Source of the DNA: a virus
Lineage: Duplodnaviria > Heunggongvirae > Uroviricota > Caudoviricetes
DNA length: 12,903 bases
IMG/VR virus record: IMGVR_UViG_2531839662_000018
Span: 1 to 12,903 of that record
Reading direction: 5' to 3' (one strand)
Below, in pieces: positions 3,313 to 12,903 of this stretch (within the stretch, counting starts at the first letter, position 1; every line of letters begins with the position of its first letter). The position numbers and the translations under genes are program-made. Below the pieces are notes generated by a model that made no database searches, was not told where the DNA came from, and was given only the letters and a program-made list of their open reading frames with translations.

Positions 3313-3505
3313 TCAGCAAGCAACAATGACAATTACCCTGAGTGTGCCAGATGATTTCACCGGACGCATACTGGTTTACCTGGATAAAGGGAAAGTGAAA
3401 TCACAATGCCGACTGAAAAGTAATGAGATTGTTGGTTCTCCTGAATTTTTTTCTGAACTCTGTATTCGTGCGGAAATAAAACCGGAACTGCTGACAGGAA
3501 AATAA
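3305..3505 (+). CDS. hypothetical small protein (66 aa); paralog of the N-terminal half of the previous gene
   Basis: Overlaps the previous gene by 8 nt, with a GGGGGTG ribosome-binding site. The two proteins share an alignable block (DDFTGRILVYLDKGKV ... IVGSPEFFSELCIRAEIKP versus DEKFTGQLLVNVENGRV ... IAGSVEALLELAERARLIKP). Confidence 0.7.
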   Translation: MDNQQATMTITLSVPDDFTGRILVYLDKGKVKSQCRLKSNEIVGSPEFFSELCIRAEIKPELLTGK

Positions 3506-3509
3506 AACC

Positions 3510-3809
3510 ATGAAAAAGAAAAATTCTGGCTTTACTGCCAGTGGTCTCCCTCGGCCTGAAATCCGCCCCGGCGATATTTTCCGGGATAACTACGGCGGCA
3601 CGGTAACGATTAAAAGTATTGCCGGACGGTGCGTTACTTACCGCCGTGATGGGTACAGCTACGACTGCGTGATGCCTGTTTATCAGTTCCGGCGTGATTT
3701 TTCACTGATACAGGCCACACCACGCAAACAGCCCACCAGCAACGCAAAGGCACGGGCAAATATTCAGAAAATGAAAAACATGATTAACGCATTCAGGGGC
3801 ACAAAATGA
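3510..3809 (+). CDS. hypothetical protein (99 aa)
   Basis: Tightly packed in the operon; its stop overlaps the next start (ATGA). No family recognised. Confidence 0.7.
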   Translation: MKKKNSGFTASGLPRPEIRPGDIFRDNYGGTVTIKSIAGRCVTYRRDGYSYDCVMPVYQFRRDFSLIQATPRKQPTSNAKARANIQKMKNMINAFRGTK

Positions 3810-5221
3810 AACTGGCACCGAACTTAAAAAAACAGCCACACGACAAAATGACCGAAGTCATTATTTTTGCGGGTAGTGATGCCTGGGCGCACGCGAAACA
3901 GTGGCAGGAGCAGGACGGGCGACTTGCTGGCGACAACGTGCCGCCTGTATGGCTGGGAGACAGCCAGCTTGACGAACTGGCAGACCTGAAAATTATCGAC
4001 GATGGTCGCTATTGTGTCCGGCTGTACAAGGCAGGCCACATCAAGCCGTCAAATATTAACGCCATCGGGCAAAAGCTGGCGGCGGCAGGTGTACGGGATG
4101 CGAATTATTACCCCGAGGGAATGCACAGCCAGAAACGCGAGGAGTGGCGCGAATATCTGGAACGAGAGCGCCAGAAAAGACTGTCCGGAGAGATACCAGA
4201 GGAAGAAAAAAACGACCAGCGAAAAACCACACTGCCAATGAGTATTGGATCTGCAGGGTACGACACACAGCTTGATTATGTCGTTAAGGGCGTGATTCCG
4301 GCTAATTCATTGTGCAGCACATACGGCGCGAGCGGTTCCTATAAATCGTTCCTCGCGTGTTCCTGGGCGTGTCATGTTGCCACGGGTCGCCACTGGGGAG
4401 GCCGCAGGGTGGCGCATGGTTCGGTGATGTATGTCGTCGGTGAAGGTGGCATTGGTGTCCCTCGTCGTATCAAAGCATGGGAAATCGTTAATGATGAACG
4501 GGTGAAAAATCTGTACCTGGTAAACCGCCCGATTTTTCCGGCGGTCCCGCTTGATGTTGATGAAATGGTCATCGCTTCCCGTCAGGTTGAACGGGAAACG
4601 GGTAAACCGGTACGCATGATTATTCTGGATACGCTGGCGCGTTGCTTTGGCGGTAATGATGAAAATGACGCGCGGGATATGGGGGCGTTTATCCGTGGAT
4701 GTGACGAACTGAAACGACGCACAGGGGCTACGGTACTGGTGGTTCACCATTCCGGCAAGGATGAAACAAAAGGGGCGCGTGGTTCCAGTGCATTTCGTGC
4801 ATCTCTGGACGCTGAATACCGTATTCGCCGTGAAGGTGCGGACAGTGAAGCCCTGGTTATCTCCTGCACCAAAATGAAGGACGCGGAGGAACTGAAAGAG
4901 GCTGCATATGATTTACGCGTGGTGGAGCTTTTTACCGACACTGACGGGGAGTTAATCACGTCGCTGGTGGTTGTGGATAAGCCGCGCCCACCTGTTGAAC
5001 TGGAACGCATCGAGGAGGCCGGGAACAAGACGGAAAATCACGCTGCGCTATGGCAGTGCATCAGAACGCGAACAGCACACGGGGAGGCGTGCACTATCGC
5101 CCTTCTCCGCGATGATATGAAAAAGCTGGGGTATGAAATGAAAAACTTCCGGCGCTGGCTGTACAAGCTGGAAAGCGACGGCGTAATCGCTATTGACGGT
5201 GATTATGTGCGCCCACTGTAA
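3806..5221 (+). CDS. replication protein with RepA-like RecA-fold helicase/ATPase domain (471 aa)
   Basis: P-loop-like YGASGSYKSF, Walker-B-like MIILDTLARCF and the LVVHHSGKD motif typical of RepA/AAA_25-type replicative ATPases. The N-terminal domain of about 160 aa is of unknown type. The gene is followed immediately by an iteron array. Confidence 0.85.
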   Translation: MKLAPNLKKQPHDKMTEVIIFAGSDAWAHAKQWQEQDGRLAGDNVPPVWLGDSQLDELADLKIIDDGRYCVRLYKAGHIKPSNINAIGQKLAAAGVRDANYYPEGMHSQKREEWREYLERERQKRLSGEIPEEEKNDQRKTTLPMSIGSAGYDTQLDYVVKGVIPANSLCSTYGASGSYKSFLACSWACHVATGRHWGGRRVAHGSVMYVVGEGGIGVPRRIKAWEIVNDERVKNLYLVNRPIFPAVPLDVDEMVIASRQVERETGKPVRMIILDTLARCFGGNDENDARDMGAFIRGCDELKRRTGATVLVVHHSGKDETKGARGSSAFRASLDAEYRIRREGADSEALVISCTKMKDAEELKEAAYDLRVVELFTDTDGELITSLVVVDKPRPPVELERIEEAGNKTENHAALWQCIRTRTAHGEACTIALLRDDMKKLGYEMKNFRRWLYKLESDGVIAIDGDYVRPL

Positions 5222-5612
5222 AAAGTGAGGAGCAAAAGTGAGGATGGCGGGTAATTTAACAAAAAATCAACGCCACTCCTCACTTTCTCACCTGTATATA
5301 GGTCAAAAAGTGAGGAATGAAAAACATATTGTAAAACAAGACATTACAACAACAAGAAAAACAGGTGAGGAGCAGGACGGGAATAACAAAAAGTGAGGAA
5401 CAAAAGTGAGGAATGGTGAGTTAATAGAAATGAGGTAATAAAAATAACAGGTAGGTTAAAAAACACACCATGCAAGATATTAACTAAAACTTAACTATTT
5501 ACCTCACTTTTGCGTATATATAAGGATTAAAAAGTGAGTACTTAAAAATACATTTAAAATCATATTGTTATTAACTTCATAAATTTTCACTGTGCAGCAG
5601 GTGAGGAATTAA
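5221..5612. repeat. iteron array / candidate replication origin
   Basis: At least nine copies of the core AAAGTGAGGA, with CAGGTGAGGA variants, in both orientations (for example 5221-5232, 5235-5245, 5278-5287 reversed, 5305-5319, 5361-5372, 5387-5399, 5402-5415, 5501-5510 reversed, 5598-5610). They are embedded in AT-rich DNA with no ORF, directly downstream of the rep gene. Confidence 0.75.
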
Positions 5613-5687
5613 AAAATCAGGAATGTTAAAAATGAAAACAGAATGTTGTGTCAGTGCCGTTGGGCAACGTAGCAATCAGTAAAAACG

Positions 5688-6230
5688 ATGGGGCAAAGCA
5701 TGACTAAGCTGACCATTAACAGAAAACCTAAAGGCATTTACGGCACGCCGCAGAAAACGACGCAGGCGGCGCAGGAGCAGGATAAAACCACGTCGGCGCA
5801 TAAAGTGATGCCCGGTAACCAGAAAGCGCAGCAGAAGCCCACAGGGGCGACACCGTGGCGGCATATGACCAAACGCCAGCGCAAAAACCGCAGGCGCGTT
5901 AACCGCCTTATCGAACTGTGGCCAGAATTATTCAGCCGGGAAGCACCGAAGCCGCTTAAGGTGGGGATATTTGACGACCTGATGCAGGATCTCGCCGTCA
6001 GGGGGCTGGCATTCGGGCCAGGGGCATTACGTGCGACGCTGGCATCTTATGCGCAGTGTCCGCGCTATTACCGCGCCTTAATGGCTGGTGGGGTACGCTA
6101 CGACCTGAAAGGCCAGCCGTGCGGCGAGGTGACACCACAGGAACAACAGGACGCAGAAACGCGGCTGGTGGCGCTGAATGAGAAGCGCAAACGTCAGCGC
6201 CGGGCAGCAAAGGAGAAAACAGGCGCATGA
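5688..6230 (+). CDS. ProQ/FinO-domain RNA-binding protein
   Basis: The central region (PLKVGIFDDLMQDLAVRGLAFGPGALRATLASYAQCPRYYRALMAGGVRYDLKGQPCGEV) matches, from memory, the conserved ProQ N-terminal/FinO domain. Basic Lys/Arg-rich N- and C-terminal tails. An alternative start at ATG 5700 has a better GGGG ribosome-binding site. Confidence 0.85.
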   Translation: MGQSMTKLTINRKPKGIYGTPQKTTQAAQEQDKTTSAHKVMPGNQKAQQKPTGATPWRHMTKRQRKNRRRVNRLIELWPELFSREAPKPLKVGIFDDLMQDLAVRGLAFGPGALRATLASYAQCPRYYRALMAGGVRYDLKGQPCGEVTPQEQQDAETRLVALNEKRKRQRRAAKEKTGA

Positions 6231-6889: not shown

Positions 6890-6928
6890 TGGTCGTGATT
6901 TTTTGGTGAAAAAAGAGAGGTGGTAACA

Positions 6929-7513
6929 ATGCCAGCAAGCAAAGAAGATTTGCGATTAAAACTGATGGAGGTGGTTAACGCTCTGTCAGAGTCGCAGGGC
7001 AGCACTCCGCAGGAGATTATCGAAATTCTGAATGCGATCCCCGCACAGGATTTCACAAAAGCAGATGAGGACAACGCGAATCAAAACATCGTCGCGTCAG
7101 TCGAAGATGAATCCTCACTGGCAGAAGCCCAGGCTAAAGCAGATTCCGCATACAGCAATATGGGCCGTCGCGCTCCAGCCCCGTTTGCTGGTGAAAAGTC
7201 GATGGATTACCGCAAGCGTGCATTAATTGGTGCACAGAAGCTGGCTAAAAAATTCAGTGATGTGGATATTCGTTCCGTTTCAGATTCTGCAACGCTGGCG
7301 GTGCTGGAAGATCAGATTTACCAGGCTGCAAAAGACAGTGTTCAGTGGGCCGTGGAAAACACGCCGGGCCATTTGGGTAAAACCGTAAGAATGGATGAAG
7401 CTGGTCGTCGTATTACTGAATATCAGGGCGATCCGAACGTCTGGCTGAACGCCTTCAAAATCCCTCCCCGTCGCCTGGTCAAAATTAACACTGCAAGCCT
7501 CGCGGGGGCATGA
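6929..7513 (+). CDS. hypothetical protein (194 aa)
   Basis: ATG at 6929 with an AGAGAGG ribosome-binding site 8 nt upstream; the ORF-track start is a GTG at 6920. Acidic N-terminal half. No family recognised. Confidence 0.75.
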   Translation: MPASKEDLRLKLMEVVNALSESQGSTPQEIIEILNAIPAQDFTKADEDNANQNIVASVEDESSLAEAQAKADSAYSNMGRRAPAPFAGEKSMDYRKRALIGAQKLAKKFSDVDIRSVSDSATLAVLEDQIYQAAKDSVQWAVENTPGHLGKTVRMDEAGRRITEYQGDPNVWLNAFKIPPRRLVKINTASLAGA

Positions 7514-7577
7514 AAAACGTGCTGAGTTCAGCCCTGCCGGATTTGGCGGGGCTTATTGCTTATAACCGGATAACATT

Positions 7578-8249
7578 ATGCTTTTAACAGAAATTGAGGC
7601 GGCAAAGCAGATTCGGGACGGTCAGCTACCGTCGCCTTATCAGTTTTCCAACATGTGGCTGGTTAACCTGCGTATTACAGGAACCGGTATGGCCTACCGC
7701 GCCGAAGAAAAAGAATTTGTCTGGCGTTCACCGCAAACTTATCTCAATCCGCAGTTCCTGGAACGTTGCGCCGGAGTACCCGTCATTATCGACCATCCCG
7801 AAGGCAAAACCATTGAAGACGTTGGCGAACGGTCGCGCATTATTGGCACCGTCATGTTGCCGTATATTCGCGGTGACGAGGTGTGGGGTGTATGCCGGAT
7901 TTACGGGCAGGAAATCATCGATTACATCCAGAAAGCACGGGGGGAGGTATCCACCAGCCCGTCGGTTGTGTTTTGTGGTGCGTCCGGTGGGGCAGAAGTT
8001 CCTGATGTAATGGGCGAGGACAATTTTTTCATTGAGGGTACGCCATTCCTTATCGATCACGTTGCGCTCGTGCCGCTTGGTGTTTGGGATAAGGGCGGGA
8101 AACCATCGGGTGTGGAGGTAACAACGCCGACAGCAGAAGAACAGCTCGCCGGAATGGTCCGGGACGTTATTGATGCGGCCTGCAAGCCAGCCCTGGAAAA
8201 ACTGGAAGAAATATCCGGGCGGCTGGCTCAACTGGAAAAAACAGAGTGA
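7578..8249 (+). CDS. hypothetical protein (223 aa)
   Basis: Protein-like composition; only a weak ribosome-binding site. A faint resemblance to phage prohead-protease-like folds (PVIIDHPEG ... IGTV ... EVSTSPSV) is too weak to call. Confidence 0.75.
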   Translation: MLLTEIEAAKQIRDGQLPSPYQFSNMWLVNLRITGTGMAYRAEEKEFVWRSPQTYLNPQFLERCAGVPVIIDHPEGKTIEDVGERSRIIGTVMLPYIRGDEVWGVCRIYGQEIIDYIQKARGEVSTSPSVVFCGASGGAEVPDVMGEDNFFIEGTPFLIDHVALVPLGVWDKGGKPSGVEVTTPTAEEQLAGMVRDVIDAACKPALEKLEEISGRLAQLEKTE

Positions 8250-8256
8250 GTGAATC

Positions 8257-8874
8257 ATGAAAATTGCTAAAAACTTAAATCTGATTATCCCTGTGCGCAC
8301 TGAAAAGGGAAATGGCTGGATCCATGCCACGCCGATCAGCAAAGAGGTGTTTAAAGAGCATTTCTTCATCCTGAGTAAAACCTTTTCTGCCATTTTTTCT
8401 GAAGGTCTTGGTGTTGTTGCGGGTCCGCGCGTTGCCTGCCTTATGCTGGAGAAAATCTCCCGTGACTCCGGTTTATGGGATGGGGAGAAAGGCATACGTA
8501 ATACGCTCATAAACGAAATTATTCGCCTGGCAAACCTTGTTTATCCAGTGGAGGGCAAAGGCTACGACACAATCCCTCTCGATATGGCGCTGGAGCGTGA
8601 AATCGTTGATTTGGACGAAGTGGCGGGTGAACTTGTTTTTTTTACATGCGTCTCGTCGATAAATTCCCCGGAGCAGACGAAGGGGACTATGGATGCGGTG
8701 AATGGAATATGGAGCACTCAATGCTCGTCCTTGAGTCTTACGGAATGGATCGCTTCATTGCCGACATTGAAGCCTGCCGTCAGTTCTGGCGCGACGGCGA
8801 ACACGTCATCAGCGACATCCTCGACTACTCAGCCGGAGCCGGATTCAGAGACATCTGTGCAGATTCCGGTCTGA
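8257..8874 (+). CDS. hypothetical protein; zero-frame product 205 aa, candidate upstream partner of a -1 frameshift pair (G-like)
   Basis: The first 129 codons are protein-like. After the T8 run (8636-8643) the zero frame becomes Ser/Thr-rich low complexity until its stop at 8874, while the -1 frame carries a well-formed ORF. Confidence 0.6.
   Translation: MKIAKNLNLIIPVRTEKGNGWIHATPISKEVFKEHFFILSKTFSAIFSEGLGVVAGPRVACLMLEKISRDSGLWDGEKGIRNTLINEIIRLANLVYPVEGKGYDTIPLDMALEREIVDLDEVAGELVFFTCVSSINSPEQTKGTMDAVNGIWSTQCSSLSLTEWIASLPTLKPAVSSGATANTSSATSSTTQPEPDSETSVQIPV
8636..8643 (+). other. T8 homopolymer forming a U UUU UUU slippery heptamer (candidate -1 programmed frameshift site)
   Basis: Zero-frame codons GTT TTT TTT ACA. 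A -1 slip re-pairs both tRNAs on TTT and continues as TAC ATG into the frame of ORF 8646-8939. Confidence 0.4.
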
Positions 8875-8939
8875 ATGTAAAAACAGCAGCTCAGTTTCGT
8901 GAGCTGCTCAAATTCAAAAATCCCGCAGGAGTATTGTAA
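8646..8939 (+). CDS. -1 frame ORF (97 aa from its first ATG), probably the C-terminal extension of a frameshift fusion (GT-like)
   Basis: This frame opens at 8631 just before the slip site. Its stop overlaps the start of the 679-aa gene (TAATG). Protein-like composition (FIADIEACRQFWRDGEHVISDILDYSAGAGFRDICADSGLNVKTAAQFRELLKF). Internal ATGs at 8709 and 8721, the latter with a GGAG ribosome-binding site, allow independent initiation as an alternative. Confidence 0.5.
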   Translation: MRLVDKFPGADEGDYGCGEWNMEHSMLVLESYGMDRFIADIEACRQFWRDGEHVISDILDYSAGAGFRDICADSGLNVKTAAQFRELLKFKNPAGVL

Positions 8940-10978
8940 TGTCAGGTAATCAGATGCCAGTTCTAACGCTGGACGTTAATGAAGAACACCTCAAACGGCT
9001 TGAGGCAATTTTTGAAAAGTATCGCAACGGGCTGATGATCGGCCCTGCCGGAACGCCGATGAAAATACCGGGGCAAAGTGGGCGCAGCGTGGGGGCAGGC
9101 TTACCCGTGGCGGCAAAATCTGGTCGGACAGGACCGGATGTATCCGGGAGAGTGAGGGACGAAAAAGGGCGCTTTGTCGGCAGCGGAAAAACAGCAGATT
9201 CGTTCGTAAGCAACTATAAAGGTCGCGGCGAAACGATGTTTGATAAGTATCTCAGCGGGCTGGGGAAAAATGCCCAACAGACGCTGAAAACTTACAAGCA
9301 GATCAATTCTACACTACAGACGACCACTTCAAGATTAAACAACCTGTTTAAAACAACCGTATCGTGGGGAACAAAACTCTCGGTTATGGGCGTTGCCGGA
9401 CCGTTTGGCTTTGGCATGATGTCCCGTAGTGTTGTAGAGAAACAGAAAAATGCAGATGAGCTGGTGGCAACGCCAGGAGAGTTAAAGGCGGCAGAAAGCA
9501 CTTATTCGCCTTATTTTTCCGGTGTTGGCAATGTGCTCAATACACTGGCAGCAGCACAAAATGATATATCGCATCCTGCCCGCGTCGGCCTGCTTAATCT
9601 GGGGCTAAATCCTGATAAAAACGCGACTGAAAACCTGCCTGTATTCCTGAAAAAGGTTGCAGCGCTGGCAAAGGAATATCAGGGAACTGGTCTTACCCAG
9701 AGCAATTTCAGAGGAATGGGGCTTGGATGGGTAAATTTTGGTCTTACTAACCAGTTAGTCAAATATCAGGACAAAATACCTGAACTCAACAAAGAGTTTT
9801 CGTTACGTGCAGCGCAGAATGATTCGTTACTGACCTCTGCACATACAAGTAAATATCAGAATCTTACCAGTAACCTGGAAAAAAACTGGGATCGGCTTAC
9901 CAGCGGATTTCAGGGAGCAATGGCGGGGAATGAAGACGCTTTAATCAGAATGTCTGATGGTACCACGAATGCTGCCCTGAATTTCATGAATGGTGAGAAC
10001 TTTAAAAGGATTCTGACTGATGTTGAAACGGGGCTGGATAAACTTGGTAAGTACGTTAATGGCCCGGATTTTAATAACGACCTGAACAATTTTGCCGAAA
10101 ACGTTGCAAAGGTCACCAAGGCACTTAGCGGATTTGTTGGTTTTGCCGTTGAACATCCCTGGCTTTTTGGGGCCGCAGTGCTTGCGGGGCCATCAAGAGT
10201 TGGTGCCGTGGCAGCCACAACAACCGGAGTTGCCGCTCGTGTTGTCGGTGGAAGTCTTCTTGGGGCTACAGCCGGAACAGTAGCAGGATTGGCTATTCCT
10301 ACAAATAACACACCTACCACCAGTGAGGAAATGAAAGGGCTGGAGGGGCGTTTCAACTTTGATTATTTTAACGAAGTGCAGGAGTGGCAAAAAAACAATC
10401 CGGGTAAGGTCTGGCCTGGAGGATTGCAGGGATTTTCAAATCAAGTAAACAGATCTGCATATTTATCCAGAGGGATCAGGAATAACAATCCCGGAAATCT
10501 TAATTTCGCAGGACAAAAAGGGGCTACTCTGGAATCGGGGCCAAATGCCCGTTTTGCCAGCTTCCCGACGATGCTGGAAGGCATTGCCGCCTTAGATCGG
10601 CAGGTAATGCTATACCTGAAACGCGGCAAAAATACGATTGATCAGATTATTGATATTTATGCCCCTTCATCTGATGGAAATAACACATCGTCCTATAAAA
10701 GCTATCTTTCTCAGTACACCGGATTAGGTGTTAAGGAGAAAATTGATGGTTCTAATTTTGAGGTCATGAAAAAGCTAATTCAGGGCATTATTAACCATGA
10801 AAATGGTGCTGCCGCTAAAGCTGTAAGTGTTGAAGATGTGATCCGGGCGCTGGCTATGAATCGTGGGATTGTCCCTGCAGCAGGAAACAATGATCAGAAC
10901 GTTAAGTTGGAAATTGTTCGGAACGCTGGTGCCGATTACTTCGCGCAACTAATTGGTGCTCAACGGTTCCTGGGATGA
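8939..10978 (+). CDS. large protein (679 aa) with Gly/Ala-rich hydrophobic core; tape-measure-like candidate
   Basis: Strong AGGAG ribosome-binding site, coupled to the upstream ORF. An Asn/Thr/Gly-rich N-terminal 400 aa. A hydrophobic segment FAVEHPWLFGAAVLAGPSRVGAVAATTTGVAARVVGGSLLGATAGTVAGLAIP (nt about 10143-10300). A C-terminal domain of about 220 aa containing the motif RGIRNNNPGNL (nt about 10471-10503). Confidence 0.9.
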   Translation: MSGNQMPVLTLDVNEEHLKRLEAIFEKYRNGLMIGPAGTPMKIPGQSGRSVGAGLPVAAKSGRTGPDVSGRVRDEKGRFVGSGKTADSFVSNYKGRGETMFDKYLSGLGKNAQQTLKTYKQINSTLQTTTSRLNNLFKTTVSWGTKLSVMGVAGPFGFGMMSRSVVEKQKNADELVATPGELKAAESTYSPYFSGVGNVLNTLAAAQNDISHPARVGLLNLGLNPDKNATENLPVFLKKVAALAKEYQGTGLTQSNFRGMGLGWVNFGLTNQLVKYQDKIPELNKEFSLRAAQNDSLLTSAHTSKYQNLTSNLEKNWDRLTSGFQGAMAGNEDALIRMSDGTTNAALNFMNGENFKRILTDVETGLDKLGKYVNGPDFNNDLNNFAENVAKVTKALSGFVGFAVEHPWLFGAAVLAGPSRVGAVAATTTGVAARVVGGSLLGATAGTVAGLAIPTNNTPTTSEEMKGLEGRFNFDYFNEVQEWQKNNPGKVWPGGLQGFSNQVNRSAYLSRGIRNNNPGNLNFAGQKGATLESGPNARFASFPTMLEGIAALDRQVMLYLKRGKNTIDQIIDIYAPSSDGNNTSSYKSYLSQYTGLGVKEKIDGSNFEVMKKLIQGIINHENGAAAKAVSVEDVIRALAMNRGIVPAAGNNDQNVKLEIVRNAGADYFAQLIGAQRFLG

Positions 10979-11029: not shown

Positions 11030-11554
11030 ATGTTTATGAGCAAGGCAGAATATGCCAAACACAAAGGCGTAAGCCGCCAGACAGTTTACGACTGGATCGA
11101 GAAAGGCGAAGTGGTCATGTCCGGTAAAAAAATCGATGTGGAAGCGACAGAGCAGCGGAACAGCCCACCAGCACAGGGAAAAGATACCGTTTCTGAAATG
11201 TGGCCAGAGAGAACGCTGGAAATGACGTGGGGCGAGTTCTGGAAAGCAGTTAAGGCCAGAGACGGTAAAATCCCTGCACCAGTAACGGACGATGACATAC
11301 AGCAGCGTGTGCAGGATGCAGCCGGGGAATTATGCTGTGAAGTGCAATTTCTTGATGATGGTGCTATCTGCCTTGAGGATTATGCTGGGCAATATTACTT
11401 TGAGCAGTATGATTTTCGGGAAAATGCCAGGCTGGCAATTCGTATGCTGCGTTGTGAGCTCTGCTATGTTGCAGGTGATTGTCCCGATGAGCTGGATAAC
11501 TGGAGTGAAGCCGGACTAAACGCCCTGGCTGAGTGGGAAAAATCATCCCATTAA
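11030..11554 (+). CDS. HTH DNA-binding protein (174 aa), excisionase/terminase-small-subunit-like N-terminal HTH with Cys-rich C-terminal domain
   Basis: GAGGGGAAG ribosome-binding site. The N-terminus (KAEYAKHKGVSRQTVYDWIEKGEV) is a classic HTH of the Xis/AlpA/TerS-Nu1 type. The C-terminal half has six Cys (CCEVQF ... CLEDY ... CELCYVAGDC). Confidence 0.8.
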   Translation: MFMSKAEYAKHKGVSRQTVYDWIEKGEVVMSGKKIDVEATEQRNSPPAQGKDTVSEMWPERTLEMTWGEFWKAVKARDGKIPAPVTDDDIQQRVQDAAGELCCEVQFLDDGAICLEDYAGQYYFEQYDFRENARLAIRMLRCELCYVAGDCPDELDNWSEAGLNALAEWEKSSH

Positions 11555-11565
11555 TGACCGTAAAA

Positions 11566-11857
11566 TTCGCGAAAAGTGTCAAGTCAGGCCGTCTGCCGGG
11601 TTGACACTTTACACTCTGAACGCGAAAAAGTGTCAACCTCGCTGTAAACCCCGCCGTTACTGGCTTTGCGCCAGATTTACCACGTCAAAAAGCCGAAAAA
11701 ATCGCGAAAAGTGTCAAGTTGCCATGCTTAGAAATGCTAAGGTTTGATAAGGTTTTTCGCGAAAAAGTGTCAAGTGTGTCAACCTGCGATGTTAAGGTTT
11801 GTTAAGGTCTTAAGCCGGAAAGTGTCAACCAGCCCCCTAAGATTTCCTAAGGTGTAA
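11566..11857. repeat. array of two interleaved short repeat families (candidate protein-binding or packaging/origin-like site)
   Basis: Family 1 is CGCGAAAAGTGTCAAG and variants (11566-11584, 11621-11638, 11702-11720, 11757-11784, 11817-11830, plus an inverted copy TTGACACTTT at 11601-11610). Family 2 is (C/T)TAAGGT(T/C)T in six copies (11738-11757, 11791-11814, 11836-11857). The region has no ORF. Confidence 0.7.
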
Positions 11858-11860
11858 ATC

Positions 11861-12040
11861 ATGACCATCACCGAAGCCGATATGCTGGAGATGATCCGCA
11901 GCATTGCCGGAATCAGACAACCAGCAAGCAAAATTAACAGGTGTTCAGCGCCTGTTTCCGTTGTGCTGCAACAGGAGCGCCACCAGCATGATGATGTGAG
12001 GCCGTATCAGTGGCGGAAACCGGACAGGCCGCGACGGTGA
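11861..12040 (+). CDS. short paralog (59 aa) of the terminal gene, with an internal deletion
   Basis: MTITEADMLEMIRSIAGIRQPASK ... RPYQWRKPDRPRR. Both ends are homologous to the 94-aa protein at 12619-12903 by eye at DNA and protein level, but about 40 central residues are missing. It has an AAGGTG ribosome-binding site and is below the ORF-track cutoff. Confidence 0.45.
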   Translation: MTITEADMLEMIRSIAGIRQPASKINRCSAPVSVVLQQERHQHDDVRPYQWRKPDRPRR

Positions 12041-12518: not shown

Positions 12519-12618
12519 AAACATGGCACCACATCCACCAGCTTAAACGCGCTTCACCTTCCCGTTATCAGTCGCCACAATTACGGCATTGTTTCCCCAT
12601 CCTCTGGAGGCCATGACA

Positions 12619-12903
12619 ATGACCGAAGCCGAAATGCTCAAAATGATTCGCCAGATTGCCGGGATCAGACCACCAGCAGGCAAACAGGAGGCCACGCAGC
12701 CGGACAGCGTGATAGCCGAAAATTACGCGCGTGTGGTGGCTGAGGTGATGCGCCGTGACGGTATCGAGCTTAACGGCGTTGATATGCGCGACATACGAAT
12801 CAGAGTTCTGGAGATGTTGTCATATCGTCGCCGCGTGGAGATGTACCGGGAGAGCGAGAAAAAGACTTACCAGTGGAAAAAACCGGAGCGGCTGCGTACG
12901 TAA
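12619..12903 (+). CDS. hypothetical small protein (94 aa)
   Basis: ATG at 12619 with a GGAGG Shine-Dalgarno at 8-nt spacing; the ORF-track starts at 12589 and 12613 lack a good ribosome-binding site. Highly charged, protein-like sequence (MTEAEMLKMIRQIAGIRPPAGKQ ... KTYQWKKPERLRT). The stop is the last codon of the window. Confidence 0.75.
   Translation: MTEAEMLKMIRQIAGIRPPAGKQEATQPDSVIAENYARVVAEVMRRDGIELNGVDMRDIRIRVLEMLSYRRRVEMYRESEKKTYQWKKPERLRT

Follow-up and report, generated by a model that had tools for sequence, protein, structure and literature searches.

Does a helicase gene that is followed at once by an array of short repeats form a replicon with that array, or do the repeats serve regulation, packaging or partition? 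This question is raised by a stretch of viral DNA of 12,903 nucleotides (the window), in which an initial annotation had seen the initiator and origin module of a satellite island. Comparison with published phage-inducible chromosomal islands (PICIs) supports that proposal at the level of sequence. We consider it highly probable that the gene, rep, and the repeats downstream of it constitute the replication module of a PICI in Escherichia coli UMNF18. The features of the module are collected in Table 1.

Table 1. Features of the rep gene and the predicted origin (positions in the window)
Feature	Position	Strand	Remarks
DUF4222 gene	3510-3809	+	Pfam DUF4222, E 2.7e-24; stop overlaps rep start (ATGA)
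rep, initiator-helicase	3806-5221	+	Intact ORF of 471 aa, ATG start; RefSeq 'helicase RepA family protein', WP_000761764.1
Rep N-terminal domain, Toprim-like fold	3806-4195	+	aa 1-130
Rep ATPase core, RecA-fold, SF4/RepA-like	4262-4765	+	aa 153-320; Pfam AAA_25
Rep C-terminal winged helix	5030-5218	+	aa 409-471; three helices and a beta hairpin; AF2 pLDDT 81-91
Predicted recognition helix, MKNFRRWLYKLES	5138-5176	+	aa 445-457, third helix; Asn447 codon 5144-5146
Predicted origin core (ori-1)	5222-5412		Conserved, ~190-200 bp; two direct iterons, inverted pair, A/T-rich spacer, two to three direct iterons
Left direct iteron pair, AAAGTGAGGA	5222-5231, 5235-5244	+	13 nt start to start; one base after rep stop
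Inverted iteron pair	5277-5316	5277-5286 -, 5307-5316 +	Around CTCACCTGTATATAGGTC
A/T-rich spacer	5317-5361		Equivalent in every locus mapped
Right direct iteron set	5362-5412	+	Weak CAGGTGAGGA at 5362-5371; exact at 5390-5399 and 5403-5412
Decayed tandem copy of the core (ori-2)	5413-5640		31% GC; inverted pair and weak copies

The island and its genes

The window matched the genome of E. coli UMNF18, a pig strain, at 100%. In that genome, an island of 13.25 kb is located at tRNA-Pro, between yejM and yejO. It is flanked by direct repeats of 16-28 nt, TTTTTAGCTACACGTT[T/A]AGCTATACG, at positions 8411 and 21637 of L001, which gives the length of 13.25 kb. The attachment site is duplicated at both ends, and a tyrosine integrase, in which three Pfam domains were matched, lies at one of them. 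The locus is shared with published yejM-site PICIs, and the insertion site is common with EcCIATCC25922. The att core published for yejM-site PICIs (TTTGTAGTTATACG...) was absent at up to two mismatches; the repeat of the island is related but different.

The genes run in the order int, alpA, ylcI, icd, DUF4222, rep, ori and then perC, almost all rightward, with every annotated island gene except ylcI/ynfO on the + strand. The alpA-type regulator (1742-1948) matched Phage_AlpA with an E of 4.5e-8. This order parallels that of EcCICFT073 and EcCI042, and the size of the island fits the range of ~8-15 kb of Gram-negative PICIs. The gene layout and insertion site of these PICIs are described by Fillol-Salom et al. 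2018 (PMC6092414). PHROG and Pfam scans of the window recognized no major capsid, portal, tail or lysis set; the only morphogenesis-type matches were a DUF2213 protein resembling a protease, a protein of 679 aa that is transglycosylase-like in part, and an HTH protein resembling TerS. A megablast search of phage genomes with 3500-5700 gave no match, and the phage proteins that matched Rep did so only distantly (<60%) and in the helicase core. We know of no helper phage for the UMNF18 island. By its gene content and location, the island belongs to the PICI-type phage satellites and carries a predicted replicon of its own.

Among the related E. coli islands examined, most have the DUF4222 gene immediately before the initiator gene, irrespective of initiator type; EcCIRM13514 is the exception. 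The DUF4222 gene is similarly placed in EcCICFT073, EcCI042, ATCC 25922 and the O104:H4 island. PADLOC gave no match that would assign a defence function to Rep or DUF4222.

The Rep protein

The gene before the repeats had initially been described as a RepA-like helicase with a RecA-fold replicative ATPase. It is intact (3806-5221), the repeats follow from 5222, and the RepA/AAA_25 core is present; however, the protein is not a helicase only, as a Toprim-like N-terminus and a C-terminal winged helix were also found. Rep is matched over its full length by phrog_2850. Pfam AAA_25 (PF13481) matched residues 153-320 with an E of 3e-44 and 151 bits (cut-off 27). The ATPase motifs are the P-loop GASGSYKS, the Walker B motif MIILD, and HHSGK; they are kept in 73-78 of 78 homologues, and Walker B (IILD/VVID-TL) together with HHSGK is present in the Rep family. 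Every one of the 78 homologues, complete primase-helicase fusions among them, has a Walker A motif of the form GxSGS[YF]KS, in which an aromatic residue (Tyr or Phe) precedes the Lys where the canonical GxxxxGK[ST] has Gly. The only sequence match to Rep in the PDB was the RSF1010 RepA helicase (1g8y, E 0.004), and the RadA matches in NCBIfam were all sub-threshold. A Foldseek search with the AlphaFold model of Rep returned T7 gp4 (best), Rad51/RadA and DnaB. In the ATPase core, the full-length model is of low quality (mean pLDDT 60), so only its N- and C-terminal domains were used for detail.

The N-terminal domain resembles the Toprim domains of DnaG, T7 and Twinkle, but it seems to lack the catalytic acidic residues and is probably non-catalytic. 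The same domain stands at the head of four different E. coli PICI initiator types. No recognizable primase was found in Rep, and the zinc ribbon and catalytic Toprim primase domains of the T7 gp4 kind are absent from it. In homologues of 680-700 aa (Xenorhabdus, Serratia, Pectobacterium and Morganella), the same ATPase is preceded by a zinc ribbon and Toprim. This is the arrangement of T7 gp4, and it identifies the Rep ATPase as a replicative motor. At the other end of Rep, the AF2 model placed helices at residues 410-424, 431-440 and 445-457 and strands at 461-464 and 467-470; a homologue gave weak MarR/HTH_Crp_2 matches at the equivalent place. Since a Toprim-like N-terminus, an SF4-type ATPase and a C-terminal winged helix occur in one protein, the helicase and initiator roles appear to be fused in Rep. 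The layout of the origin and the covariation of Rep with the iterons, both given below, point to the C-terminal winged helix as the predicted iteron reader.

The iterons and the predicted origin core

Eight matches to AAAGTGAGGA with up to one mismatch were found in the window, all within 5222-5540; 0.91 were expected by chance, and none of 200 shuffles reached eight. Six are exact (+ strand at 5222, 5235, 5307, 5390 and 5403; - strand at 5277) and two have one mismatch (- at 5501, + at 5531). Copies with two mismatches start at 5362 and 5598 (CAGGTGAGGA) and at 5613, and a weak additional copy lies on the - strand at 5287-5295. All eight occurrences of the motif AAGTGAG in the window fall within the origin. 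The array had been said to hold at least nine iterons in both orientations within AT-rich, ORF-free DNA. Nine is reached when weaker copies are counted, but the strong copies are the six exact and the two one-mismatch ones; both orientations are present, with two strong copies on the - strand. The DNA is AT-rich, with 31-34% GC over 5251-5700 against about 50% elsewhere. It is not literally free of ORFs: one of 52 codons (5238-5396), annotated by RefSeq as hypothetical at 5244-5396, overlies the iterons. This ORF is probably spurious, because it runs across the iterons and is without annotation in other islands that share the origin core. Duplex stability is lowest for the window in the AT-rich stretches of the origin, and it is low at 5284-5366; the spacer at 5317-5361 is thus a candidate for the first melting site of ori-1.

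According to PMC6092414, PICI origins are situated immediately 3' of rep and have one iteron set on either side of an AT-rich region. The UMNF18 island has the same arrangement: a left set at 5222-5316, the spacer, and a right set at 5362-5412. The functional origin core is predicted to occupy 5222-5412, about 190 bp. Direct copies are followed by a - copy, a + copy 30-32 nt further on, the spacer, and direct copies again at about +133 to +195. This layout of ~200 bp is kept across ~80 Enterobacterales loci, independently of the iteron sequence; it was seen with the iterons GTGAGGA, GTGGGGGA, TGCGGCA, GTGGGGGC and GTGGGGAG, and the start-to-start spacing of the inverted pair is 30-32 nt in all iteron classes. 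Of 5426 complete E. coli genomes, 319 carried the ori-1 core, and seven E. coli origin cores align colinearly. No DnaA box was found in the origin (the only one in the window, at 4972-4980, is inside rep and at chance level), nor was an IHF or a sigma-70-like promoter consensus.

Repeats in such a place could also be regulatory sites rather than an origin, bound by the C-terminus of Rep or by another island regulator. They might end or throttle the early operon, or control the proQ-like, perC and morphogenesis genes downstream. The array begins at the stop codon of rep and separates two blocks of genes, plasmid iterons often autoregulate as well, and covariation with Rep speaks to binding, not to the effect of binding. 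However, the core and its layout are kept before unrelated genes (a proQ-like gene here, a hypothetical gene and ssb in EcCI042 and others), and the core contains no promoter-like site. An inverted pair and an A/T-rich spacer beside a helicase-initiator are the published design of PICI and SaPI origins, and the analogous region of CFT073 acts as an origin. A regulatory role in place of an origin is therefore very unlikely. A dual role is possible, and it would leave the origin function standing.

The second repeat array

Satellites depend on a packaging signal, and pac, cosB and centromere-like sites typically contain protein-binding sites in repeated copies; the repeats after rep might thus be a packaging (pac/cos) or partition site. 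Yet they covary with the helicase-initiator and not with a terminase or ParB-like protein. Pfam and PHROG scans found no par genes in the window, and a lambda-type cos is absent from it. A better candidate for the packaging site is the separate array at 11573-11828, which consists of six exact copies of AAAGTGTCAA and sits after the gene for the terminase-small-subunit-like HTH protein. It is extremely unlikely that the repeats beside rep serve packaging or partition, and the origin remains the preferred assignment.

The two arrays had been linked through a shared AAAGTG. This motif is literally common to both, as it is contained in the six AAAGTGTCAA copies, but it is not a functional link to Rep, because the array at 11573-11828 is unchanged in islands with DUF927-type or primase-type initiators. 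A reading of this array by Rep was ruled out on the same ground. The 174-aa HTH protein, considered as a relative of the annotated TerS of EcCIATCC25922 or of the C-terminal domain of Rep, was unrelated to both.

Covariation of Rep with its iterons

The motif of the recognition helix was compared with the downstream iteron at 74 loci. A K-N-F helix occurred with TGAGGA (25 of 26 loci), K-K-F with GGGGG (28 of 29), K-S-F with GCGGC (all eight), and K-H-F with TGGGG (eight of nine). Residue 447 follows the iteron accordingly: Asn goes with GTGAGGA, His or Lys with GTGGGG, and Ser with TGCGGCA. In the colinear E. coli cores, each iteron copy reads either GTGAGG or GTGGGG, and residue 447 of Rep is correspondingly Asn or His, in C-terminal domains that are otherwise 95-96% identical. 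Because the covariation classes are largely clades, only about 4-6 switches of helix and iteron are independent, among them perhaps two between Asn and His within E. coli. The covariation of residue 447 with iteron position 7 provides strong indirect support for the specific binding of Rep to its own iterons.

A decayed tandem copy of the predicted origin

Alignment identifies 5413-5640 as a decayed second copy of the origin core, in tandem with the first: 5256-5409 and 5480-5635 are 64% identical over 152 columns (z 8.8 against shuffles), and the repeats are offset by 224-236 nt between ori-1 and ori-2. The copy retains an inverted pair (5501-5510 on the - strand, 5531-5540 on the + strand) with one mismatch in each member, together with weak iterons at 5598-5607 and 5613-5622. 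The full 466 bp is largely present in only 21 of 5426 E. coli genomes. In Xenorhabdus beddingii, a tandem second origin of full GTGGGGA specificity stands beside a GTGAGGA core.

Such decay raises the question of whether the whole module is a relic, intact in sequence but non-working owing to an odd P-loop, a lost primase or the lack of a helper phage. Besides the visibly decayed ori-2, the Tyr at the canonical Gly position of the P-loop, the missing zinc-ribbon and Toprim primase domains of longer relatives, and the lack of transfer of EcCI042 in published tests could be read in this way. On the other hand, the Rep reading frame is unbroken, thousands of sequences conserve it at 59-94% identity, and the P-loop variant is universal among the homologues, primase-helicase fusions included. 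The co-evolution of the iterons and the recognition helix requires continued selection on the module, and the core persists in hundreds of E. coli genomes, as counted above. We regard a non-working relic as most improbable and a working replication module as the better reading.

Comparison with known systems

The closest published relative is the Pri-Rep of EcCI042 (CBG34588 / WP_000833617, E. coli 042), which is 88% identical to the window Rep over its full length. EcCI042 has the same AAAGTGAGG iterons in the same order from the stop codon, and its upstream DUF4222 gene and island layout also match. Its origin is the ~200-bp core alone, whereas the window adds the decayed copy. The two islands also differ in their downstream genes, integrase and insertion site (tqsA in EcCI042, tRNA-Pro/yejM in the window). 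According to PMC6092414, the EcCI042 Pri-Rep is one of four allelic variants, its origin was described by inspection, and no transfer was obtained with the helper phages tried. Given the PICI gene order and a Rep so close to this Pri-Rep with the same iterons, the UMNF18 module belongs to an already published kind. Our literature search returned no study of a RepA-type PICI replicon beyond the 2018 paper.

In the same paper (PMC6092414), a pri-rep-ori segment of EcCICFT073 drives plasmid replication; its motor is of an unrelated primase/SF3 type. The syntenic position is the same as in the window, and over its first ~135 residues the initiator shares 63% identity with the window Rep. Short iterons in both orientations surround an AT-rich stretch directly after the gene, as in the window. 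The remainder of the EcCICFT073 initiator, a 584-aa 'DNA primase family' protein of D5/SF3-like type, is unrelated, and its iterons (GGTAGACA/GGTAGATA) are unlike those of the window.

In SaPI Reps, a C-terminal winged helix reads iterons located directly after rep, and the helicase loads itself, with no loader known (PMC9371898). As in the window, the iterons of SaPIbov1, SaPI1 and SaPI5 are opposed around an AT-rich centre, and initiator and helicase are one protein. The SaPI motor, however, is AAA+ (SF3/MCM-like, 3'-5'), whereas that of the window is RecA-fold and SF4/RepA-like. Studied members of the SF4/RepA-like class move 5'-3'. No sequence relationship is detectable, and the resemblance to SaPIs is an analogy, not family membership.

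By sequence, RepA of RSF1010 (IncQ) is the closest solved relative of the window ATPase; both are AAA_25 proteins, although the similarity is weak (E 0.004). RSF1010 is iteron-based, as the window replicon is predicted to be. In RSF1010, the RepA helicase, RepC initiator and RepB' primase are separate, whereas the window protein fuses a helicase with a DNA-binding domain, and no RepB or RepC homologue was found among the window ORFs. T7 gp4, the best fold match of the window model, has neither a C-terminal winged helix nor a cognate iteron origin, both of which go with the window Rep. Like Twinkle, the window Rep keeps a silent primase-like domain. The alpha protein of satellite phage P4, another initiator of several domains, reads repeated octamers through a DNA-binding domain at its C-terminus. 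Unlike the window module, P4 has a D5/SF3-type motor with an active primase and a bipartite origin (ori and crr) that does not directly follow the gene; alpha has no sequence similarity to the window ATPase or C-terminal domain. P4 is compared with PICIs in PMC6092414.

Proposed mechanism and significance

We infer the steps of binding, melting and self-loading, together with helicase polarity, primer source and the use of ori-2, in the following scheme. After induction of the island, Rep would be expressed from the rightward operon, its translation coupled to that of the DUF4222 gene. Its winged helix would read the AAAGTGAGGA iterons that start one base past its own stop codon, with Asn447 of the recognition helix reading the A at iteron position 7. 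Rep molecules may then assemble on the direct copies and the inverted pair and open the adjoining A/T-rich spacer. There Rep would load itself as a ring helicase, needing no separate loader and probably placing one ring per direction, and, if it follows its class, move 5'-3'. Priming and synthesis would be left to host enzymes; DnaG is the likely primase, since Rep has no recognizable one.

A broader joint reading is tentative, and we give it somewhat less than even weight. It holds that residue 447 sets the base at position 7, that tandem origins serve the Reps of other groups, and that the N-terminal domain is an adaptor. Residue 447 as Asn, His/Lys or Ser would specify A, G or C, respectively, at iteron position 7, and the Enterobacterales PICIs would fall into discrete, switchable groups of replication specificity. 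A tandem second origin may let the Rep of another group replicate the island. The silent Toprim-like domain, which heads four unrelated motors, would act as a shared adaptor, for instance to a host replication factor or to the DUF4222 protein.

The conservation of the layout in ~80 loci, the tracking of the iteron by residue 447, and the decayed tandem origin add to what has been published. They leave the general view of PICI biology as it was; the module is well supported but ordinary. Recognition of the island as a PICI-type satellite helps to annotate hundreds of similar islands; the ~197-bp core occurs in 319 of the 5426 complete E. coli genomes. Asn447 with GTGAGG and His447 with GTGGGG, in near-identical proteins, form a directly testable recognition rule. 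This rule could explain the replication separateness of co-resident satellites, and it could serve for building orthogonal small replicons. A 17-kb circular Klebsiella 'plasmid' record is itself a PICI-like element with the same Rep class and layout, and it lends circumstantial support to the autonomous replication of elements of the Rep family.

Relationship to known PICIs

Over 3500-5700 the sequence is 100% identical to the chromosome of the porcine isolate E. coli UMNF18, and the window corresponds to NZ_AGTD01000001.1 2651638-2664540. It starts with an integrase gene, 210 bp past a tRNA-Pro gene in the yejM/yejO interval. The direct repeat TTTTTAGCTACACGTT[T/A]AGCTATACG is found 90 bp ahead of the window and about 230 bp beyond its end; this bounds an island of 13.25 kb. 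Nearly all genes run rightward, in the order integrase, small hypothetical gene, AlpA-type regulator (Pfam Phage_AlpA, E 4.5e-8), ylcI/ynfO (opposite strand), Icd-like gene, two small genes, DUF4222, RepA-like gene, 466-bp gap, ProQ/FinO-like gene, perC, protease-like DUF2213 gene, 679-aa protein gene, 174-aa HTH gene, another non-coding stretch and a final small gene.

Gram-negative phage-inducible chromosomal islands (PICIs) carry an integrase with a specific attachment site, alpA, rightward transcription and often perC, and several use the yejM site (PMC6092414, Table S1). Their origin lies directly 3' of "pri-rep", with two iteron sets flanking an AT-rich region; EcCICFT073's pri-rep-ori segment maintains a plasmid, and removing either part impairs maintenance (PMC6092414). 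EcCICFT073, EcCI042, EcCIRM13514 and EcCIATCC25922 were fetched for comparison. All four show a gene order parallel to that of the window, and EcCIATCC25922 has the same insertion site. The "Pri-Rep" of EcCI042 (RefSeq "helicase RepA family protein"), one of four allelic variants (PMC6092414, Figure S10 legend), is 88% identical to the window Rep, and the 200 bp 3' of its gene carry the window's iterons in unchanged order. Given this match and the PICI gene order and site, the module belongs to the published kind. The initial annotation of an initiator and origin module of a satellite island is thus supported, on comparative rather than experimental grounds. The kind itself is not new, the UMNF18 island being a further member; modestly new are the single-residue recognition rule, an origin geometry that stays constant between iteron classes, a decayed tandem origin, and a shared silent Toprim-like N-terminal domain.

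The Rep protein

Rep has 471 residues, and the ATG of its gene overlaps the DUF4222 stop (ATGA). A Pfam AAA_25 match of 151 bits (cut-off 27) covers residues 153-320, and the iterons start one base past the stop codon, confirming a RecA-fold, RepA-like ATPase gene directly before the repeats. The sole solved structure found by sequence was the RSF1010 RepA helicase (E 0.004). The Walker B and HHSGK motifs of the ATPase core are kept, and the P-loop GxSGS[YF]KS occurs in 78/78 homologues examined. The last 63 residues, modelled as three helices and a beta hairpin (pLDDT 81-91), form a predicted winged helix whose third helix comprises residues 445-457, MKNFRRWLYKLES.

Xenorhabdus, Serratia, Pectobacterium and Morganella have homologues of 680-700 residues with a primase zinc ribbon and a Toprim domain before the same ATPase and C-terminal domain. 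This relates the family to primase-helicases of the T7 gp4 type, with the recognisable primase lost from the E. coli version. The first ~135 residues of Rep share 59-63% identity with the N-terminal ends of three E. coli PICI initiators that are otherwise unrelated: a 584-aa CFT073 protein, a 607-aa RM13514 protein and a 710-aa DUF927 protein of the O104:H4 island. Behind a constant Toprim-like head, initiator motor, DNA-binding part and origin seem to be exchanged as a cassette.

This head (~130 residues) is encoded by window 3806-4195 and by comparison loci L002 (5242-5650), L004 (6231-6640) and L091 (3089-3490), in one RepA-type, two primase-type and one DUF927-type initiator. In all of these islands but EcCIRM13514, thus in three of four, the gene immediately upstream of the initiator is DUF4222. 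L091, the island of E. coli O104:H4 2011C-3493, has CGGGATAT iterons and variants at 5222-5560, directly 3' of its DUF927-type initiator, in both orientations and flanking an AT-rich stretch; the rule of gene then origin therefore covers a third motor type.

Iterons and origin layout

With up to one mismatch, AAAGTGAGGA occurs eight times in the window, every copy within 5222-5540 (0.91 expected by chance; 0/200 shuffles reach eight). Six copies are exact. Two of the eight lie on the minus strand, so both orientations are indeed present. The proposed "at least nine" copies are reached only with weaker ones (CAGGTGAGGA at 5362 and 5598, plus a few), which raise the total to 10 or 11. GC drops to 31-34%, and the origin stretches have the lowest duplex stability in the window. 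The region was also described as ORF-free, but RefSeq annotates a 52-codon "hypothetical protein", WP_001372362.1, across the iterons. Such a gene is not annotated in other islands sharing the origin core, and it is probably a false call. Within rep, ~240 bp short of the origin, there is one perfect DnaA box, TTATCCACA; it is the only match in the window, and chance predicts one.

Scanning a single genome from each species for Rep relatives gave 80 loci. Nearly all repeat a short word 5-12 times in the 450 bp past the rep stop, compared with 2-5 times in same-sized segments within the gene. Loci of every iteron class, mapped by distance from the rep stop codon, follow a single design (see table). 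The ~197-bp core is present in 319/5426 complete E. coli genomes. The repeats might instead be regulatory sites only; this deserves low weight, as the core is retained in front of downstream genes that are unrelated, and no promoter-like site lies in it.

Features of the replication module and second array, with the layout shared by mapped loci
Feature	Window position	Shared layout or remark
rep	3806-5221 (+)	
DnaA box	4972-4980 (-)	inside rep
ori-1	5222-5412	conserved core
Left direct copies	5222, 5235	1-3 direct copies at very start
Inverted pair	5277 (-), 5307	opposite-strand copy at +40 to +57; forward copy 30-32 nt on, TATATA-like centre between
WP_001372362.1	5244-5396	probable false call
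Spacer	5317-5361	A/T-rich, 50-60 nt
Right copies	5362 (weak), 5390, 5403	2-4 direct copies, 11-13 nt apart, ~+133 to +195
ori-2	5413-5640	decayed copy
ori-2 inverted pair	5501 (-), 5531 (+)	one mismatch each
174-aa HTH gene	11030-11554	
AAAGTGTCAA array	11573-11828	5 on +, 1 on -

The gap between rep and the next gene, usually 201 bp in E. coli, is 466 bp here. An alignment of positions 5256-5409 with 5480-5635 has 64% identity across 152 columns (z 8.8 relative to shuffled sequence), and a repeat finder gave offsets of 224-236 nt. The alignment identifies the window origin as duplicated in tandem at a period of ~224 nt, the second copy having decayed: its inverted pair and right-hand weak copies are kept, and its left-hand iterons have drifted to GTGAGT, TGAGGT and GTAGGT. 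Most of the long form is found in only 21 E. coli genomes. Xenorhabdus beddingii (L007 5020-5540) has similar tandem origins of the same ~224-nt period, the first core with GTGAGGA and the second with GTGGGGA iterons. This hints that tandem origins with different iterons could serve two Rep specificities.

Covariation of Rep and iterons

In 74 loci, the recognition-helix residue between a conserved Lys and Phe was scored against the iteron. K-N-F accompanied (A)GTGAGGA in 25/26 loci, K-K-F GTGGGGGA in 28/29, K-S-F [A/G]TGCGGCA in 8/8 and K-H-F GTGGGG[A/C] in 8/9. Since iteron classes are partly clades, the cleanest evidence comes from within E. coli. Full-length alignment of seven colinear E. 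coli origin cores showed all iteron copies to be GTGAGG or GTGGGG, with Asn or His, respectively, at position 447 of Rep. Apart from this position, the C-terminal 77 residues reach 96% identity, and both Asn and His occur on two different sequence backgrounds. Contacts of Asn with adenine and of His or Lys with guanine are common preferences in protein-DNA recognition, and the pairing fits them. Together these are strong indirect evidence that the predicted winged helix reads the iterons. The alternative of packaging or partition sites carries low weight, as the repeats covary with a helicase-initiator and the array at 11573-11828 is a better packaging candidate. A relic is likewise improbable: gene, motifs and protein-DNA match are all evidently under selection.

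The K-S-F class includes the Rep of CP018459.1 (Klebsiella pneumoniae pKp_Goe_795-4), a 16,971-bp record submitted as a circular plasmid; TGCGGCA iterons in the usual arrangement come after this Rep. The element encodes integrase, capsid, head-tail adaptor and terminase, and has the appearance of a PICI-type satellite that encodes a capsid and was captured in circular form.

In the SaPI Rep-ori system, a C-terminal winged helix binds iterons directly 3' of rep, the AT-rich centre opens, and the initiator is itself the self-loading helicase (PMC9371898). The window module is best explained as a similar self-contained replicon. The predicted winged helix would bind the iterons directly 3' of rep, the AT-rich centre would melt, and Rep would load itself as helicase, with priming left to the host. 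Unlike SaPI Rep, the window Rep has a RecA-fold, SF4-type motor.

The second array and neighbouring genes

Six exact copies of AAAGTGTCAA (~1 expected) lie directly 3' of the 174-aa gene, whose product has an HTH and a weak terminase-small-subunit match. The AAAGTG noted in both arrays is literally shared. It is no evidence for one protein binding both: this gene and an identical array also occur in E. coli islands with DUF927-type (CGGGATAT iterons) or primase-type initiators, so the array goes together with the HTH gene rather than with RepA. A role as packaging signal is plausible.

Upstream, 6920-10978 encodes a phrog_6216 fragment, the DUF2213 protease-like protein, a phrog_11810 protein and the 679-aa protein, which in its C-terminal part is similar to transglycosylase or tape-measure segments; EcCICFT073 and EcCI042, in contrast, have capsid and decoration genes downstream. 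The last island gene (phrog_1561 family, ORF 12619-12903) has its start repeated ~750 bp upstream at 82% identity (11860-11898 versus 12612-12650). The upstream copy begins a 59-codon ORF (11861-12040), the start of which is a partial duplicate of the terminal gene.
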